Source of the DNA: Escherichia coli
GTDB taxonomy: Bacteria; Pseudomonadota; Gammaproteobacteria; Enterobacterales; Enterobacteriaceae
Length of the DNA: 64,000 bases
NCBI RefSeq assembly: GCF_013122565.1
Contig: NZ_CP053258.1
Direction: 5' to 3' (one strand)
Below the pieces are notes generated by a model. That model saw nothing but the letters and a program-made list of their open reading frames with translations. It did not search any database and had not been told where the DNA came from. The stretch's first letter is position 1; the number at the start of each line of letters is the position of its first letter. Both the position numbers and the translations under genes were made by a program. Below are positions 2,821 through 37,730 of this stretch, piece after piece.

Positions 2821-3568
2821 CCGTGATTTTATGCGTTATAGCCGCCAAATCCTGCTCGACGATATCGCTCTTGACGGGCAGCAAAAACTGCTCGACAGCC
2901 AGGTGCTGATTATCGGTCTTGGCGGGCTGGGTACACCTGCTGCGCTGTACCTGGCGGGGGCTGGTGTCGGGACGCTGGTACTGGCAGATGACGACGATGT
3001 GCATTTAAGCAATCTGCAACGACAAATCCTCTTTACCACTGAAGATATCGATCGCCCGAAATCGCAAGTCAGCCAACAGCGACTGACACAGTTGAATCCC
3101 GATATTCAACTGACGGCACTACAACAACGGTTAACGGGTGAGGCGTTAAAAGATGCGGTTGCACAAGCCGATGTGGTGCTCGACTGTACCGACAATATGG
3201 CGACTCGCCAGGAGATTAATGCCGCCTGCGTGGCACTCAACACGCCGCTTATCACCGCCAGCGCGGTCGGATTTGGCGGTCAGTTGATGGTACTGACGCC
3301 ACCCTGGGAGCAGGGGTGTTACCGCTGCCTGTGGCCAGATAACCAGGAGCCAGAACGTAACTGCCGCACGGCGGGCGTGGTTGGCCCGGTGGTCGGGGTT
3401 ATGGGCACTTTACAGGCACTGGAAGCCATTAAGTTATTAAGCGGTATAGAGACGCCTGCGGGAGAATTCCGACTGTTCGACGGTAAGTCGAGCCAGTGGC
3501 GCAGCCTGGCGTTGCGCCGCGCTACAGGTTGCCCGGTATGCGGAGGAAGCAATGCAGATCCTGTTTAA
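2813..3568 (+). CDS. thiF: ThiS adenylyltransferase ThiF
   Basis: [15 protein letters not shown]... E1-like fold with GxGxxG; start chosen at internal ATG overlapping thiE stop (ORF track extends upstream in frame). Confidence 0.92.
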
Positions 3569-4524: not shown

Positions 4525-5654
4525 AAACCTTCAGCGATCGCTGGCGACAACTGGACTGGGACGACATCCGCCTGCGTATCAACGGCAAAATGGCTGCTGA
4601 CGTAGAACGGGCGCTAAATGCCTCGCAACTCACCCGCGACGATATGATGGCGCTGTTATCGCCAGCCGCCAGTGGCTATCTGGAACAACTGGCCCAACGG
4701 GCGCAGCGTCTGACACGTCAGCGATTTGGCAATGTTGTCAGTCTTTACGTCCCGCTTTATCTTTCCAATCTTTGCGCTAACGACTGCACGTACTGCGGAT
4801 TTTCCATGAGTAATCGCATCAAGCGCAAAACGCTGGATGAAGCGGATATTGCCAGGGAAAGCGCCGCTATACGGGAGATGGGCTTTGAACATCTGCTGTT
4901 AGTCACTGGTGAACATCAGGCGAAAGTGGGGATGGATTACTTTCGTCGTCATCTCCCTGCCCTTCGTGAACAGTTCTCTTCACTACAGATGGAAGTGCAA
5001 CCGCTGGCGGAGACGGAATACGCCGAGTTAAAGCAGCTTGGTCTGGATGGCGTGATGGTTTATCAGGAGACATATCACGAGGCGACTTATGCCCGCCATC
5101 ATCTGAAAGGCAAAAAACAGGACTTCTTCTGGCGGCTGGAAACGCCGGATCGGCTGGGGCGTGCGGGGATTGATAAGATAGGCCTCGGCGCGCTAATTGG
5201 CCTTTCCGACAACTGGCGCGTTGACTGCTATATGGTTGCCGAACATTTGCTATGGCTGCAACAGCATTACTGGCAAAGCCGTTACTCTGTCTCCTTTCCG
5301 CGCCTGCGCCCGTGTACTGGTGGCATTGAGCCTGCGTCGATTATGGATGAACGCCAGTTAGTGCAAACCATCTGCGCCTTCCGACTGCTTGCACCGGAGA
5401 TTGAACTGTCACTCTCCACGCGGGAATCACCGTGGTTTCGCGATCGCGTGATTCCACTGGCAATTAATAACGTCAGCGCTTTTTCGAAAACGCAGCCAGG
5501 TGGCTATGCCGACAATCACCCCGAGCTGGAACAGTTCTCACCGCACGACGATCGCAGACCGGAAGCGGTTGCTGCCGCGTTAACCGCTCAGGGTTTGCAG
5601 CCGGTATGGAAAGACTGGGACAGGTATCTGGGACGCGCCTCGCAAAGACTATGA
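4521..5654 (+). CDS. thiH: 2-iminoacetate synthase ThiH (radical SAM)
   Basis: 377 aa ORF with CANDCTYC radical-SAM motif; overlaps thiG stop. Confidence 0.95.
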
Positions 5655-6040
5655 GACGGAATGTAAGAACGTAAATTTATTCCGAGCCGCTACGGAAGAT
5701 GAAAAACGCAAGGTTGTTGAAAGCGTTGTGTTTTTTTATGGTAGTGCCGTCAGCAGGAATGTTGTCCAGGGCGAAAAGCTTCTTCCTCGTTTCGCCCTGC
5801 CTTTCTTAAAAATTCCGTAATGCAAAGTCTGAAGCCATCGCCTGTTGAGCAATGAAAGAGATCTGATTGTAATAGAGTAAATACTCAACTATGATAGAGA
5901 CGAAAATAAGAACACATGTTCTCATCTTCCAGGATGCAGCAGACTGAAGAAATTCAGACATCCCGCAACCTGCGATTATCGCAAGGTCAAGGCAAAGTCC
6001 GGTAATGGCGTTCTGAATACCAGAGATAATTCTCTGGCGA

Positions 6041-6070
6041 AACCCACCTTAAGGTGGGTTTTGTTATTTT
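6041..6070 (+). terminator. Rho-independent terminator-like hairpin (aacccacc-ttaa-ggtgggtt + T-tract) at the 3' end of htrC
   Basis: Perfect 8-bp stem and T-rich tail on + strand; overlaps htrC stop codon. Confidence 0.5.
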
Positions 6071-6603
6071 GAGGGCTGAGGAAGCTGCTTATTTCTCAAT
6101 AAGTTGTAGGCAATGGTGAAAAATTTCACTGATTTACCTTTCTGTTTTTCAGAAATGGGATAAGCGCTAGTTACATGCAAACGGAGTTTTTTCTTTTCCC
6201 TGAAAGCCCTGAACGCAACAAAGTAAAATGCCTTATCTCCTCCGTCTAAGTCCACCTCAATCACGGCATAGCTACCATACCCGGCATGAATAACGTTGCT
6301 TTCTGGCAGCGCCAAAATAGTTCTTTTTAAGTGTGTGCGCGCTAAGTTATAACGGTGCTGGCAGAAGGGACGAGATTCTTTAGGCGCGTGGTACATTAAC
6401 GATTGTTTTTCTTCGTTCGTCTGATGTTCATAATCTTTTGTGAAGCAGTGAAGAGAGTAGGTAACCCAAAAGCGATACTCTAAAGGCTCTTTGCCCTCAT
6501 GATGCTGAACGTAGACAGCCTGATGAGCATCAAGAAATGATAAATCACGAATATCACCATCCGGATGTCCAAAAGGTCGCCACTTTTCCACTTCCTGTTT
6601 CAT
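6064..6603 (-). CDS. htrC: heat-shock protein HtrC (YjaZ)
   Basis: 179 aa ORF in the conserved position between thiH and rpoC. Confidence 0.85.
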   Translation of the reverse strand: MKQEVEKWRPFGHPDGDIRDLSFLDAHQAVYVQHHEGKEPLEYRFWVTYSLHCFTKDYEHQTNEEKQSLMYHAPKESRPFCQHRYNLARTHLKRTILALPESNVIHAGYGSYAVIEVDLDGGDKAFYFVAFRAFREKKKLRLHVTSAYPISEKQKGKSVKFFTIAYNLLRNKQLPQPSK

Positions 6604-6767
6604 TCTCGTTCCTTAAGAAAGTTACACAGGAATAGTATCGAATCCTTGCCGAGTTTGACTCAATTAGTTCAGTTAGTTTCAGGATATTAGTCATCTCTAC
6701 ATTGATTATGAGTATTCAGAAATTCCTTAAATATTCTGACAAATGCTCTTTCCCTAAACTACCCCCA

Positions 6768-6795
6768 TAAAAAAACCCGCCGAAGCGGGTTTTTA
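6768..6795 (-). terminator. rpoBC operon terminator
   Basis: GC stem cccgc-cgaa-gcggg flanked by A-run and T-run, 20 nt downstream of rpoC stop. Confidence 0.8.
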
Positions 6796-6815
6796 CGTTA
6801 TTTGCGGATTAACGA

Positions 6816-9800
6816 TTACTCGTTATCAGAACCGCCCAGACCTGCGTTCAGCAGTTCTGCCAGGCTGGCAGATGCGTCTTCTGCAGTCACCTGCGGTGCA
6901 GCCGGAGCTTCACCCGCAGCACGGCGACGCATACGATCCTGGTGGTACGCGTAACCGGTACCTGCAGGGATCAGACGACCCACGATAACGTTCTCTTTCA
7001 GGCCGCGCAGTTCGTCGCGTTTGCCCGCAACGGCTGCTTCGGTCAGCACGCGAGTGGTCTCCTGGAACGATGCCGCGGAGATGAAGGACTCGGTTGCCAG
7101 AGACGCTTTGGTGATACCCAGCAGATCGCGGGAGTAAGTTGCACCCACTTTGCCGTTCGCTTCCAGTTCGCGGTTTGCGATCTTGACGCGAGAGTATTCA
7201 ACCTGTTCGCCTTCCAGGAAGTCGGAGCTGCCCGCGTTAACGATGGTAGCTTTACGCAGCATCTGACGAACGATAACTTCGATGTGTTTATCGTTAATCT
7301 TAACGCCCTGCAGACGGTATACGTCCTGTACTTCGTTAACGATGTAACGAGTAACAGCATGAACACCACGCAGACGCAGAATGTCGTGCGGCGCTTCCGG
7401 ACCGTCGGAAATTACGTCACCACGTTCTACACGTTCACCTTCGAACACGTTGAGCTGACGCCATTTCGGAATCATCTCTTCGTACGGATCGCTACCGTCT
7501 ACCGGGGTGATAACCAGACGACGTTTACCTTTGGTTTCTTTACCGAAGGAAACGATACCGCTGATTTCAGCCAGGATTGCCGGCTCTTTCGGACGACGTG
7601 CTTCGAACAGGTCCGCAACGCGCGGCAGACCACCGGTGATGTCCTTGGTACCGCCGGATTCCTGCGGAATACGCGCCAGGGTGTCACCAGAGCTGATCTG
7701 TACGCCATCTTCCAGCTGAACAATCGCTTTACCCGGCAGGAAGTACTGCGCAGGCATATCGGTACCTGGGATCAGAACGTCGTTACCCTGAGCATCAACG
7801 ATTTTCAGTGCCGGACGCAGATCTTTACCACCTGCGGTACGTTCTGCGGAATCCAGAACCACCAGCGAAGACAGACCGGTCAGTTCGTCGGTCTGACGCG
7901 TAATGGTCTGGCCGTCGATCATGTCAGTAAAGCGTACAAAACCGCTTACTTCGGTGATAACCGGCATGGTGTGCGGGTCCCAGTTTGCAACGGTTTCGCC
8001 GCCAGCAACCTGTTCGCCATCGCCTTTTGCCAGTACCGCACCGTAAGGTACTTTGTAGCTTTCTTTGGTACGACCGAATTCGTCGATCAGTTTCAGTTCG
8101 GTGTTACGGGAAGTGATAACCAGTTTACCGCTGGAGTTCACAACCGACTTCACGTTGCTGAGCTTGATGCTACCTTTGTTTTTCACCTGGATGCTGGATT
8201 CAGCAGCCGCACGTGATGCCGCACCACCGATGTGGAACGTACGCATGGTCAGCTGTGTACCCGGTTCACCGATGGACTGTGCCGCGATAACACCGATTGC
8301 TTCACCCTTGTTGATGATGTGGCCACGCGCCAGGTCACGACCGTAGCAGTGCGCACATACACCAAAGTCGGTGTCACAAGATACAACAGAACGTACTTTA
8401 ACCGCGTCGACAGAGTTCTCTTCCAGCAGGTCACACCACTGTTCGTGCAGCAGCGTGTTGCGCGGAACGAGGATATCAGCAGTACCCGGCTTCAGAACGT
8501 CTTCAGCAGTTACACGACCCAGTACGCGATCGCGCAACGGCTCTTTAACATCACCACCTTCGATAACCGGAGTCATCATGATACCTTCATGGGTACCACA
8601 ATCGTCTTCGGTAACCACCAGGTCCTGCGCCACGTCAACCAGACGACGAGTCAGGTAACCGGAGTTCGCAGTTTTCAGTGCGGTATCCGCCAGACCTTTA
8701 CGAGCACCGTGGGTGGAGATGAAGTACTGGAGTACGTTCAGACCTTCACGGAAGTTCGCGGTGATTGGCGTTTCGATGATGGAGCCATCCGGCTTCGCCA
8801 TCAGACCACGCATACCAGCAAGCTGACGAATCTGTGCCGCAGAACCACGCGCACCGGAGTCGGCCATCATGTAGATGCTGTTGAAGGAAACCTGCTTCTC
8901 TTCCTGACCGTCACGGTTAATCACGGTTTCAGTTTGCAGGTTATCCATCATCGCTTTGGATACACGATCGTTCGCCGCAGCCCAGATATCGATAACTTTG
9001 TTGTAGCGTTCGCCCGCAGTTACCAGACCAGACTGGAACTGCTCCTGAATTTCCGCAACTTCTGCTTCTGCCTCGGAGATGATTTCGTGTTTCTTCTCCG
9101 GGATGACCATGTCATCGATACCAACAGATGCACCAGAACGCGCTGCATATGCAAAGCCGGTGTACATGATCTGGTCCGCAAAAATAACGGTCGGTTTCAG
9201 ACCGAGAATGCGGTAGCAGGTGTTCAGCATTTTGGAGATTGCTTTTTTACCCAGCGCCTGGTTGACGATGGAGTAAGGCAGACCTTTCGGTACAATCATC
9301 CACAGAATGGCACGGCCAACAGTCGTGTCTTTCAGGCTGGTTTTCGCTACTAATTCACCGTTAGCATCTTTTTCATACTCGGTGATACGCACTTTAACGC
9401 GCGCATGCAGAGAAGCCAGACCAGAGCGATACAGACGTTCTGCTTCTTTCGGGCCAGTCAGCACCATGCCTTCGCCTTTGGCGTTAACACAGTCACGGGT
9501 CATGTAGTACAGACCCAGTACAACGTCCTGAGACGGAACGATGATTGGTTCGCCGTTCGCCGGGGACAGGATGTTGTTGGTAGACATCATCAGCGCACGC
9601 GCTTCCAGCTGGGCTTCCAGCGTCAGCGGTACGTGAACAGCCATCTGGTCACCATCGAAGTCGGCGTTATATGCCGCACAAACCAGCGGGTGCAGCTGGA
9701 TAGCTTTACCTTCGATCAGTACCGGTTCAAATGCCTGGATACCCAGACGGTGCAGAGTCGGTGCACGGTTCAGCAGTACCGGGTGTTCGCGGATAACTTC

Positions 9801-11039
9801 GTCCAGGATATCCCAAACGACAGCTTCTTCGCGCTCAACCATTTTCTTCGCAGCTTTAATGGTGGTAGCAAGACCACGCAGTTCCAGCTTGCCGTAGATG
9901 AACGGTTTGAACAGCTCCAGCGCCATTTTCTTCGGCAGACCGCACTGATGCAGACGCAGGTATGGACCCACGGTGATTACAGAACGACCGGAGTAGTCAA
10001 CACGCTTACCGAGCAGGTTCTGACGGAAACGACCCTGTTTACCTTTGATCATGTCGGCCAAAGATTTCAGAGGACGCTTGTTAGAACCGGTGATCGCACG
10101 ACCGCGACGACCGTTATCCAGCAGGGCGTCTACCGCTTCCTGCAGCATACGTTTTTCGTTACGTACGATGATATCCGGCGCAGCCAGATCCAGCAGACGT
10201 TTCAGACGGTTGTTACGGTTAATGACGCGACGATACAGATCGTTCAGGTCAGAAGTCGCGAAACGACCACCATCCAGCGGAACCAGCGGACGCAGATCTG
10301 GCGGCAGTACCGGCAGAACGGTCAGGATCATCCACTCTGGTTTGTTACCAGACTGAACGAACGCTTCCAGTAGTTTGATACGCTTGGTCAGCTTTTTACG
10401 CTTAGTTTCGGAGTTGGTTTCGTTCAGCTCTTCACGCAGCTGTTCGCACTCTTGCTCCAGATCCATGCTCTTCAGCAGAGCCTGGATTGCTTCCGCACCC
10501 ATCTTCGCGTCGAATTCGTCACCGAACTCTTCCAGCGCGTCCAGATACTGCTCTTCAGTCAGGATCTGCTGACGTTCCAGGTTGGTCATACCGCCTTCAA
10601 TAACCACATAGGATTCGAAGTACAGTACGCGTTCGATATCGCGCAGCGGCATATCAAGCAGCAGGCCGATACGGGACGGCAGCGATTTCAGGAACCAGAT
10701 GTGCGCAGTCGGGGAAGCCAGTTCGATGTGGCCCATACGCTCACGGCGTACTTTAGTCTGGGTCACTTCAACGCCGCACTTCTCACAGATAACGCCACGG
10801 TGTTTCAGGCGCTTGTACTTACCGCACAGGCACTCGTAATCTTTTACCGGCCCAAAGATACGGGCGCAGAAAAGGCCGTCACGTTCTGGTTTGAACGTAC
10901 GGTAGTTGATGGTTTCCGGCTTTTTAACTTCACCGAAAGACCATGAACGGATCATGTCTGGCGAAGCCAGAGCAATTTTGATCGCATCAAACTCTTCGGT
11001 TTTAGTCTGCGCTTTCAGAAACTTTAATAAATCTTTCAC
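6816..11039 (-). CDS. rpoC: RNA polymerase beta' subunit
   Basis: 1407 aa ORF; Zn-finger CxxC...CxxC N-terminus and NADFDGD active site. Confidence 0.99.
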
Positions 11040-24344: not shown

Positions 24345-24464
24345 ATGCCTGGCAGTTCCCTACTCTCGCATGGGGAGACCCCACACTACCATCGGCGCTA
24401 CGGCGTTTCACTTCTGAGTTCGGCATGGGGTCAGGTGGGACCACCGCGCTACGGCCGCCAGGCA
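24345..24464 (-). rRNA. rrfB: 5S ribosomal RNA
   Basis: 120-nt reverse complement TGCCTGGCGGCCGTAGCGCGGTGGTCCCACCTGACCCCATGCCGAACTCAG...GGGAACTGCCAGGCAT. Confidence 0.97.
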
Positions 24465-24556
24465 AATTCTGTTTTATCAGACCGCTTCTGCGTTCTGATT
24501 TAATCTGTATCAGGCTGAAAATCTTCTCTCATCCGCCAAAACACCTTCGGCGTTGT

Positions 24557-27460
<2,904 letters not shown>

Positions 27461-27653
27461 TCACAACCCGAAGATGTTTCTTACGATTCATCATCGTGTC
27501 GCGAAAATTTGAGAGACTCACGAACAACTTTCGTTGTTCAGTGTTTCAATTTTCAGCTTGATCCAGATTTTTAAAGAGCAAATATCTCAAACATCACCCG
27601 AAGATGAGTTTTGAGATATTAAGGCAGGTGACTTTCACTCACAAACCAGCAAG

Positions 27654-27729
27654 TGGCGTCCCCTAGGGGATTCGAACCCCTGTTACCGCCGTGAAAGGGC
27701 GGTGTCCTGGGCCTCTAGACGAAGGGGAC
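27654..27729 (-). tRNA. gltT: tRNA-Glu in the 16S-23S spacer
   Basis: Reverse complement GTCCCCTTCGTCTAGAGGCCCAGGACACCGCCCTTTCACGGCGGTAACAGGGGTTCGAATCCCCTAGGGGACGCCA. Confidence 0.96.
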
Positions 27730-27814
27730 GTATCAGTCTGCTTCGCAAGACGCCTTGCTTTTCACTTTCTATCAGACAATCTGTGTGAGCACTGCAAAGT
27801 ACGCTTCTTTAAGG

Positions 27815-29356
<1,542 letters not shown>

Positions 29357-32376: not shown

Positions 32377-32620
32377 TGTAAAGCATCCACAATAGAAGAA
32401 GGATGCCGCAGGTTTCATCAATATTACGCGATGATGAGAACCAGATGCGACGTTGGCCGGCAGGTCTTCGGGCTTGGAGGGGTATCTAAGATACTAAGAG
32501 ATGATGACTTCCCACCGAATGGCAGTGTCCGCATAACGCAATCATCGCACCTTTCCTTACCGCTGCGCGTCAGCTCCAGATTCGCACTGGATTCCCTATT
32601 AACTCACAGGACCGGCAAGT
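32377..32620 (-). promoter_or_regulatory. cobalamin (B12) riboswitch in btuB leader
   Basis: About 240-nt leader containing B12-box (reverse complement AGCCCGAAGACCTGCCGGCC at 32455-32474) and GCCGGTCCTGTGAGTTAATAGGGAATCCAGTGCGAATCTGGAGCTGACGCGCAGCGGTAAGG. Confidence 0.85.
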
Positions 32621-32744
32621 GGATGCTACAGGTTGTAACAAGTTACTGTCCAGACATAGCTCACAAATAGGAATTCATCAAGATCTGGACATCTGATGAG
32701 CAATCCCTACAATCGCCGCGTACTTTAATTTTTCAGGATACATC

Positions 32745-37612: not shown

Positions 37613-37721
37613 GAAACGGAGCGGCACCTCTTTTAACCCTTGAAGTCACTGCCCGTTTCGAGAGTTTCTCAACTCGAATAACTAAAGCCAACGTGAACTT
37701 TTGCGGATCTCCAGGATCCGC
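37613..37721 (+). ncRNA. oxyS: OxyS small regulatory RNA
   Basis: Sequence GAAACGGAGCGGCACCTCTTTTAACCCTTGAAGTCACTGCCCGTTTCGAGAGTTTCTCAACTCGAATAACTAAAGCCAACGTGAACTTTTGCGGATCTCCAGGATCCGC matches remembered oxyS. Confidence 0.93.
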
Positions 37722-37730
37722 TTTTTTTTT
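37702..37730 (+). terminator. oxyS intrinsic terminator
   Basis: Stem gcggatc-tccag-gatccgc followed by T10. Confidence 0.9.

Follow-up and report, generated by a model that had tools for sequence, protein, structure and literature searches.

The subject of this analysis is the segment between thiH and yjaZ (formerly htrC) in a 64,000-nucleotide (nt) stretch of Escherichia coli DNA (RefSeq assembly GCF_013122565.1, contig NZ_CP053258.1), referred to here as the window, and in particular a hairpin located at the yjaZ end of that segment. The open reading frame (ORF) list placed the end of thiH, on the + strand, at 5654 and yjaZ at 6064–6603 on the − strand. The gap between them is therefore 5655–6063, or 409 bp, and the longest ORF in it has at most 51 amino acids (aa). 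A first-pass annotation had given the gap as 410 bp with no ORF of at least 60 aa, and had interpreted it as either a long 3' untranslated region (UTR) of the thi operon or a small RNA (sRNA). The hairpin terminates SroH, an sRNA that is already known. We consider it very probable that the region is made of two unrelated units, an ancestral thiH 3' region (5655 to about 5819) and the known sRNA gene sroH, which is one half of a mobile yjaZ cassette; SroH would act on yjaZ, an action that we infer. The features of the locus are as follows.

5699–5809, + strand: 36-codon ORF, judged to be non-coding; codons 2–13 correspond to the T1 hairpin and codons 24–34 to hairpin 2.
5701–5737, + strand: T1, candidate intrinsic terminator of the thi operon, with an A-tract, a weak stem (5707–5730), and U7 (5731–5737).
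5767–5808, + strand: conserved hairpin 2, consisting of CAGGGCGAAA, a 13-nt loop, and TTTCGCCCTG, then CCTTTCTT.
5820–6763, approximate boundaries, no strand: sroH-yjaZ insertion/deletion cassette of about 0.94 kb, from alignment with B2 strains.
5867–5895, + strand: sroH promoter-like site, TTGTAA, a 17-nt spacer, and TATGAT; predicted +1 at about 5902.
5902–6062, + strand: sroH sRNA gene as annotated, 161 nt (Rfam RF00372 and the MG1655 annotation).
5932–6071, + strand: conserved SroH core (our own covariance model, R1; 148.7 bits).
6040–6072, + strand: SroH intrinsic terminator, with stem 6040–6048/6053–6061, loop TTAA, and tail TGTTATTTTGA.
6064–6603, − strand: yjaZ (formerly htrC), 179 aa, convergent to sroH (ORF; NCBIfam NF007263, 430 bits).

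The hairpin consists of AACCCACC, the loop TTAA, and GGTGGGTT at 6041–6060, followed by TGTTATTTTG, and can be extended to an 11-nt perfect inverted repeat (6040–6050/6051–6061). Its 20-mer occurred once in the window, compared with 0 occurrences expected from shuffled sequences, and the fold of 6030–6075 had an energy of −22.7 kcal/mol (z = −4.7). The + strand at 6040–6072 has the components of an intrinsic terminator: a stem of 9–11 bp with five G-C pairs, the loop UUAA, and the tail UUUUGUUAUUUU. This site was absent from the output of the simple, strict terminator scan of the window, probably owing to the interruption in the T-run. The TAA stop codon of yjaZ (6066–6064 on the − strand) lies inside the T-rich tail, and the first-pass description of a perfect hairpin and U-tract overlapping the htrC stop was thus borne out.

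The same annotation had suggested, without placing it precisely, an sRNA named sroH near htrC. In the Rfam scan, RF00372 (sroH) matched 5902–6062 on the + strand over model positions 1–161 of 161, with 201.1 bits and E = 4e-51; a member of the family had to match the covariance model over its full length and to reach the curated gathering score of 80 bits. The MG1655 RefSeq record (NC_000913.3) annotates the noncoding RNA sroH (b4691) in the corresponding place, between the same flanking genes and on the strand of thiH, so that the suggestion was correct. The gap and its immediate flanks were identical to MG1655 at 440 of 441 aligned bases; the sole difference, T for G at 5873, is directly 3' of the −35 hexamer of sroH. 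Position 5902 corresponds to 4190487 (− strand) in MG1655. The fold of the whole sroH region had an energy of −58.8 kcal/mol (z = −5.6).

The promoter-like site at 5867–5895 matches the consensus at 9 of 12 positions and ends 6 nt before 5902, a spacing at which the transcription start would coincide with the annotated 5' end of sroH. A transcription start site (TSS) for sroH in both E. coli and K. pneumoniae is reported in the supplement to PMC3415461, and PMC5389530 refers to a SroH "primary transcript" that is polyadenylated at its 3' end and subject to polyadenylation-dependent turnover. What distinguishes an independent sRNA gene, a promoter of its own 5' of a mapped 5' end, is thus indicated by the promoter-like site and by the reported TSS. 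At its other end the transcript probably extends into the U-tract, to about 6066–6072. From the sequence and from the comparisons below we conclude that sroH, which has a promoter-like site and a terminator of its own, is a gene apart from thiH and belongs with yjaZ.

Comparison among genomes delimited the second unit. The cassette starts at about 5820 and comprises sroH with its promoter and yjaZ with its upstream region. The full region was carried by 3729 of 5420 E. coli genomes, in agreement with an earlier inference that sroH was lost from B2 and D strains (PMC3318445); about 31% of the thiH-bearing genomes were without it. Alignment showed that the cassette is absent from the B2 strains ATCC 11775 and CFT073. 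In cassette-free E. coli, thiH and the first 162–164 downstream bases are followed almost directly by the terminator of rpoC, the gene that lies beyond yjaZ in the window (6816–11039, − strand). A divergent Escherichia genome (L009) had the cassette at the same site. Elsewhere the thiH-rpoC interval is occupied by a gene for an SseK/NleB-type effector (Salmonella), by a GGDEF gene plus phosphotransferase system (PTS) IIB and IIA genes (Klebsiella), or by a cold-shock-domain gene plus PTS genes (another enterobacterial genus). Because the genes between thiH and rpoC are unrelated across the Enterobacteriaceae, we regard this interval (5655–6816 in the window) as a variable insertion hotspot.

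Two further observations concern the cassette. In the empty site of ATCC 11775 (L003:1615–1726), a 23-nt filler contains the invariant SroH motif TCTGAATA 10 nt ahead of the rpoC terminator; the filler scores 20 bits with the SroH model and could be a cassette remnant or chance. The 10-nt inverted repeat TTCTGAATAC/GTATTCAGAA that flanks yjaZ was found in the K-12-type sequence only (0 of 40 other unique homologues) and was attributed to chance.

The thi operon lies on the + strand and is preceded by a thiamine pyrophosphate riboswitch at 109–209 (Rfam scan of the window). If the hairpin ended thi transcripts, the 400 nt after thiH would be a long thiCEFSGH 3' UTR from which SroH is processed; the hairpin is on the thiH strand, and the simple scan listed no canonical terminator between the two, T1 included. 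T1, however, is an A5-stem-U7 hairpin that begins 47 nt past the thiH stop (−14.6 kcal/mol, z = −4.7), and it is conserved in position across genera, since Salmonella has a strong canonical terminator at this position and Klebsiella a hairpin with a U-run. The T1 stem is weak, with three G-C pairs, and might permit read-through. Against processing from a thi transcript are also the correctly spaced promoter-like site and reported TSS of sroH, the E. coli genomes that keep thiH without sroH, and the occurrence of sroH beside yjaZ, in genomes and on plasmids, where no thi genes are close by. An sRNA derived from a 3' UTR would lack its own promoter and would be inherited with, and dependent on, the upstream mRNA, and SroH did not show these properties. 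We therefore consider a long thi 3' UTR, as the first-pass annotation had proposed, very unlikely.

The first unit, as we read it, is the ancestral thiH-proximal segment, whose last conserved element is hairpin 2 (−15.0 kcal/mol, z = −3.7). This hairpin is invariant among E. coli lineages with and without the cassette, and its stem (5767–5799) is also present in Klebsiella. The 36-codon ORF spans both T1 and hairpin 2. It was found at 5699–5809, with its ATG at 5699, the translation that had been quoted for it, and the poor Shine-Dalgarno spacing that had been noted, which results from a GGAAG motif abutting the ATG. In favor of a gene for a small hydrophobic protein are the open frame that begins with an ATG, its hydrophobic composition, and high nucleotide conservation within Escherichia. 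The conservation, however, tracks the two RNA hairpins and not the reading frame: Salmonella has lost the start codon, which sits at the foot of the T1 stem; Klebsiella has an open frame, but one that encodes an unrelated peptide; and the variable sites within Escherichia comprise three non-synonymous changes and one synonymous change. The MG1655 RefSeq record has no coding sequence (CDS) annotated at this position. The hallmarks of a small protein gene, namely a kept start and frame, amino acid conservation, and a usable ribosome-binding site, were thus absent. Conservation of the ORF, which the first-pass annotation had named as a check, did not hold across genera, and we find a coding function extremely improbable; the ORF appears to be a non-coding by-product of structured U-rich sequence.

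The association of sroH with yjaZ was examined from both sides. In a nucleotide search of plasmids, the two genes occurred together in 99 bona fide plasmids (103 matching records minus four chromosome-sized E. coli sequences), with hosts that include Escherichia, Enterobacter, Klebsiella, Citrobacter, Serratia, Edwardsiella, and others. In an E. coli plasmid the pair lies between phage tail genes, in a Serratia plasmid it adjoins a tyrosine recombinase, and in the 2462-bp ColRNAI plasmid CP124999.1 yjaZ is the only annotated CDS. Five IMG/VR contigs carried the pair, and the phage GenBank collection gave no nucleotide match.

On the protein side, all nine yjaZ loci in GTDB representative genomes (from E. 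coli, Erwinia, Pantoea, Serratia, Enterobacter, Pseudomonas lundensis, and Marinomonas) had an sroH match directly past the yjaZ stop on the opposite strand. Model R1 found the RNA, with 95–118 bits, at all six further yjaZ loci with downstream DNA (Aeromonas and four cyanobacterial contigs). A convergent SroH-like RNA thus followed 15 of 15 yjaZ homologues with downstream DNA, from Enterobacterales to cyanobacteria. In every homologue examined, the tail UUUGUUAY holds the complement of the yjaZ stop codon.

On the RNA side, a 24-base pattern from the 5' part of the RNA gave 77 metagenomic and viral loci, 66 of them with enough downstream DNA. Among these 66, yjaZ was present in 57 (adjacent in 55, displaced by an insertion sequence in two), truncated yjaZ remnants were present in four, and five were without yjaZ. 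Four of the five yjaZ-less loci had relE-relB and a gene for a 236-aa tyrosine recombinase in the yjaZ slot, and the sroH copies associated with relBE kept their promoter and structure. In some plasmids, likewise, relE-relB lies between sroH and the 236-aa tyrosine recombinase in place of yjaZ. The relBE-type loci L024, L037, L062, and L083 have a full sroH; L005:1501–1551 has the 3' 50 nt only.

Several of these contigs had other features. A 6.9-kb metagenomic contig with approximately 3984x coverage (L044) has sroH copies at 3361 and 5823, exactly 2462 bp apart; it resembles a tandem assembly of the 2462-bp yjaZ/sroH ColRNAI plasmid, present at very high abundance. A superoxide dismutase gene adjoins yjaZ in a contig from the cyanobacterium Waterburya (L095:1543–2142) and a yjaZ remnant in three metagenomic contigs (L050, L057, and L092), a neighborhood that may be coincidence. 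At the end of one contig with a complete sroH-yjaZ pair is a second, partial SroH copy (L036:10886–10959; model positions 64–136, 69 bits).

The conserved SroH core has six helices. It begins with P1 (5932–5936/5959–5963), J1 (CAGCAGA, 5937–5943), and P1b (5944–5948/5953–5957), continues with P3 (5964–5966/6008–6010), the P2 hairpin (5968–5987), and the P4 mini-hairpin (within 5989–6000), and proceeds through the CGGUAA junction (from 6000), UUCUGAAUA (6011–6019), and P5 (6020–6026/6031–6037) to the terminator. When 45 sequences were aligned to R1, 99.2% of the cells were standard pairs, compared with 29–45% in slid-partner controls, and 19 of 32 pairs had compensatory changes, a number reached by none of 500 shuffles. 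This alignment was fitted to the model and so leans toward the structure; an independent alignment with MAFFT and RNAalifold gave the same helices, with 12 compensatory pairs. Anchor-based parsing showed P2 to be a variable hairpin that is always closed by ACC/GGU and whose fourth pair takes all four Watson-Crick combinations, and the long-range helix P3 occurs as CGC/GCG, CAC/GUG, CGU/ACG, and GGC/GCU. The RNA has 48 invariant columns, whereas YjaZ is only 47–50% identical across phyla. In most homologues the RNA strand carries promoter-like −10 and −35 elements at corresponding positions; those of Pseudomonas are TTGACA-17-TATAAT, and those of a cyanobacterium are TTGACA-17-TATAGT. The elements are located directly before the GGAUG core or, as in E. 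coli, before an extra 5' hairpin. By comparison, the Rfam RF00372 consensus marks the terminator stem only. On the strength of this covariation and conservation, we conclude that SroH is a highly structured RNA under strong selection.

The structure also bears on the hairpin itself, which could instead be mainly a bidirectional terminator of yjaZ, with SroH as an incidental antisense by-product. On the − strand the hairpin begins 3 nt past the yjaZ stop and is followed by a second hairpin, as such a role would have it. The stem on that strand, however, is followed by CGCCAGAG, with no U-run, in contrast to UUUUGUUAUUUU on the + strand. G-U pairs are abundant in the covarying helices and C-A pairs almost missing, which points to the + strand as the selected, functional strand, and an incidental transcript would not need kept promoter-like elements, five upstream helices, and invariant junctions. 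A primary role in yjaZ termination is thus highly improbable, and we retain the hairpin as the SroH terminator.

Other properties of the SroH sequence were considered and discarded. Sub-threshold Rfam matches to Hammerhead_II, the rnk leader, and RsmY (15–29 bits) were driven by the terminator hairpin and were judged to be chance. A single GGA motif does not make a CsrA-sponge architecture. The words CAGCAG and CGGUAAU, which recall the 16S 530 loop, raised the possibility of mimicry of, or pairing with, ribosomal RNA (rRNA); the longest words shared with 16S, 23S, and 5S rRNA were 6–9 nt, no better than those of random 13–25-mers. A 29-codon ORF inside sroH (5916–6005, + strand) meets a stop after five codons in most plasmid copies, so that its frame is not conserved; the conserved AUG CAG CAG of the SroH core opens a shorter frame nested in this ORF.

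The YjaZ protein matches only its own family (NCBIfam NF007263, and Pfam PF27200 "YjaZ" on the homologues), which is basic, with a median isoelectric point of 9.2. The "heat-shock" assignment behind the name htrC has been retracted (PMC11551758). The AlphaFold model is alpha/beta, with a predicted local distance difference test score (pLDDT) of 87.7 and a predicted template modeling score (pTM) of 0.84, and the C-terminal half of this model weakly resembles RelE/ParE toxins. With the model as query, Foldseek gave nothing significant, nor did a viral fold search of BFVD with YjaZ. There was no match in a PDB sequence search or in local Pfam and PADLOC searches, and hhalign of YjaZ against a swapped-in RelE gave a probability of 0.3%, that is, no profile similarity. 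No conserved second ORF that could be a protein antitoxin gene was seen in the cassette.

Because a structured, convergent RNA accompanied yjaZ in 15 of 15 cases, SroH is probably the RNA partner of YjaZ, and the fact that the two travel together, be it by plasmid, phage, or chromosome, in hosts that range from E. coli to cyanobacteria, suggests that they cooperate. By the sequence and comparative evidence, transcription of SroH on the + strand starts at about 5902, from a sigma-70-type promoter-like site that belongs to sroH, and ends at the hairpin and U-tract at 6040–6072. In the mechanism we propose, the RNA would act on yjaZ, its partner, and not on the thi operon. The action could be through unavoidable 3' antisense overlap with yjaZ mRNA, through binding of YjaZ, which is a basic protein, or through both. 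By position, the tail of SroH is complementary to the yjaZ stop-codon region. The pair might then behave as a toxin-antitoxin (TA) or addiction-type module, because it is the sole cargo of a tiny plasmid, adjoins recombinase and TA genes, can have its yjaZ replaced by relBE, and includes a protein whose modeled fold may be RelE/ParE-like.

Alternatively, SroH could be an ordinary trans-acting, base-pairing sRNA with chromosomal targets, its adjacency to yjaZ reflecting co-transfer only. SroH bound kbl mRNA in vitro in an electrophoretic mobility shift assay (PMC6172242) and builds up in stationary phase (bioRxiv 10.64898/2025.12.22.696124), and the intact state of the yjaZ-less copies fits this explanation. 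A seed used in E. coli, however, leaves unexplained the 48 invariant positions and six covarying helices shared from cyanobacteria to E. coli on mobile elements, as well as the fixed terminator tail over the yjaZ stop and the protein-side co-occurrence, and the SroH U-tail is interrupted, unlike that of typical Hfq-dependent sRNAs. We consider a purely trans-acting role unlikely, and favor SroH as the partner of YjaZ.

Several results weigh against that partnership or against the separation of sroH from thi. The yjaZ-less sroH copies keep the promoter and helices, so that SroH may work without YjaZ; when these copies were inspected for relaxed constraint, they had one departure at the 48 invariant columns, that is, no decay. 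The invariant loops had no conserved complementarity to the yjaZ 5' UTR or CDS, and RNAduplex on long sequences paired SroH with yjaZ mRNA no better than with shuffles. The extent of antisense overlap with yjaZ mRNA is a prediction from the sequence, and the evidence for a RelE/ParE-like fold in the model is weak. Where PMC5389530 cites the sroH deletion strain that has been made and studied, the phenotype given is in envelope stress only, which argues against a potent unopposed toxin in K-12. Overexpression of SroH had no biofilm or motility phenotype (PMC4606813), and the literature searched contained no paper tying SroH to YjaZ or to TA systems. T1, finally, is a candidate terminator with a weak stem, and some read-through from thiH into sroH may occur.

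We therefore propose only tentatively, as a possibility, that SroH-YjaZ is an unrecognized, widely mobile RNA-protein module, made of an RNA core of about 130 nt (six helices and invariant junctions) and a basic protein of about 180 aa, that serves as an addiction, stress, or defense unit and is neither a type I nor a type III TA system. The pair is distributed over Enterobacterales, Aeromonas, Pseudomonas, Marinomonas, and cyanobacteria, and it also occurs on ColE1-type plasmids, on IMG/VR viral contigs, and on a plasmid that carries phage tail genes. The flagged feature is in itself ordinary, being the terminator of an sRNA that was catalogued years ago and whose function was explicitly called unknown in papers up to 2016. 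The comparative result is a testable lead: SroH is tied to yjaZ and, over different phyla and on mobile elements, shows stronger conservation than YjaZ does. Should the two form a TA- or defense-like unit, this would account both for two orphan genes of K-12 and for why some E. coli phylogroups have the cassette and others do not, and it would add an RNA-protein module that neither the type I nor the type III definition, as they now stand, covers.

The Rfam scan gave further matches elsewhere in the window: P26 (15398–15459), a cobalamin riboswitch (32442–32631), OxyS (37613–37722), and an rrn operon (24347–29356) with 5S, 23S, and 16S rRNA, in which StyR-44 lies in the 16S-23S spacer just upstream of 23S.

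Compared with SroH of E. coli K-12 (b4691; RF00372), the gene, its flanks, and its strand are the same, and nothing differs at the locus. The sRNA and its terminator were thus already known; the obligate pairing with yjaZ, the six-helix covarying structure, and the occurrence on plasmids and phage contigs and in cyanobacteria were not described in the literature searched. Members of the RelE/ParE superfamily (RelBE, ParDE, HigBA, and YoeB-YefM) differ from YjaZ, which has no sequence or profile similarity to them and a Pfam family of its own (PF27200), is twice the size, has an extra N-terminal domain, and is accompanied by no protein antitoxin gene. In type III TA systems (ToxIN and its relatives), the RNA antitoxin consists of tandem repeats, lies upstream of the toxin gene on the same strand, and is processed by the toxin. 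SroH-YjaZ shares with these the idea of a structured RNA that neutralizes a protein by binding it, but SroH is without tandem repeats and is convergent, and the pair therefore falls outside type III. Type I TA loci with convergent, 3'-overlapping RNA antitoxins include txpA/RatA, bsrG/SR4, and fst RNAI/RNAII. The likeness to these is one of layout: a small, labile RNA converges on a protein gene, the terminator region is in common, and the loci are found on mobile elements. Type I toxins, however, are small hydrophobic peptides (less than about 60 aa), whereas YjaZ is a basic, soluble protein of 179 aa, which places it outside this class, and the conservation of SroH in sequence and structure exceeds what a cis-antisense RNA would need.

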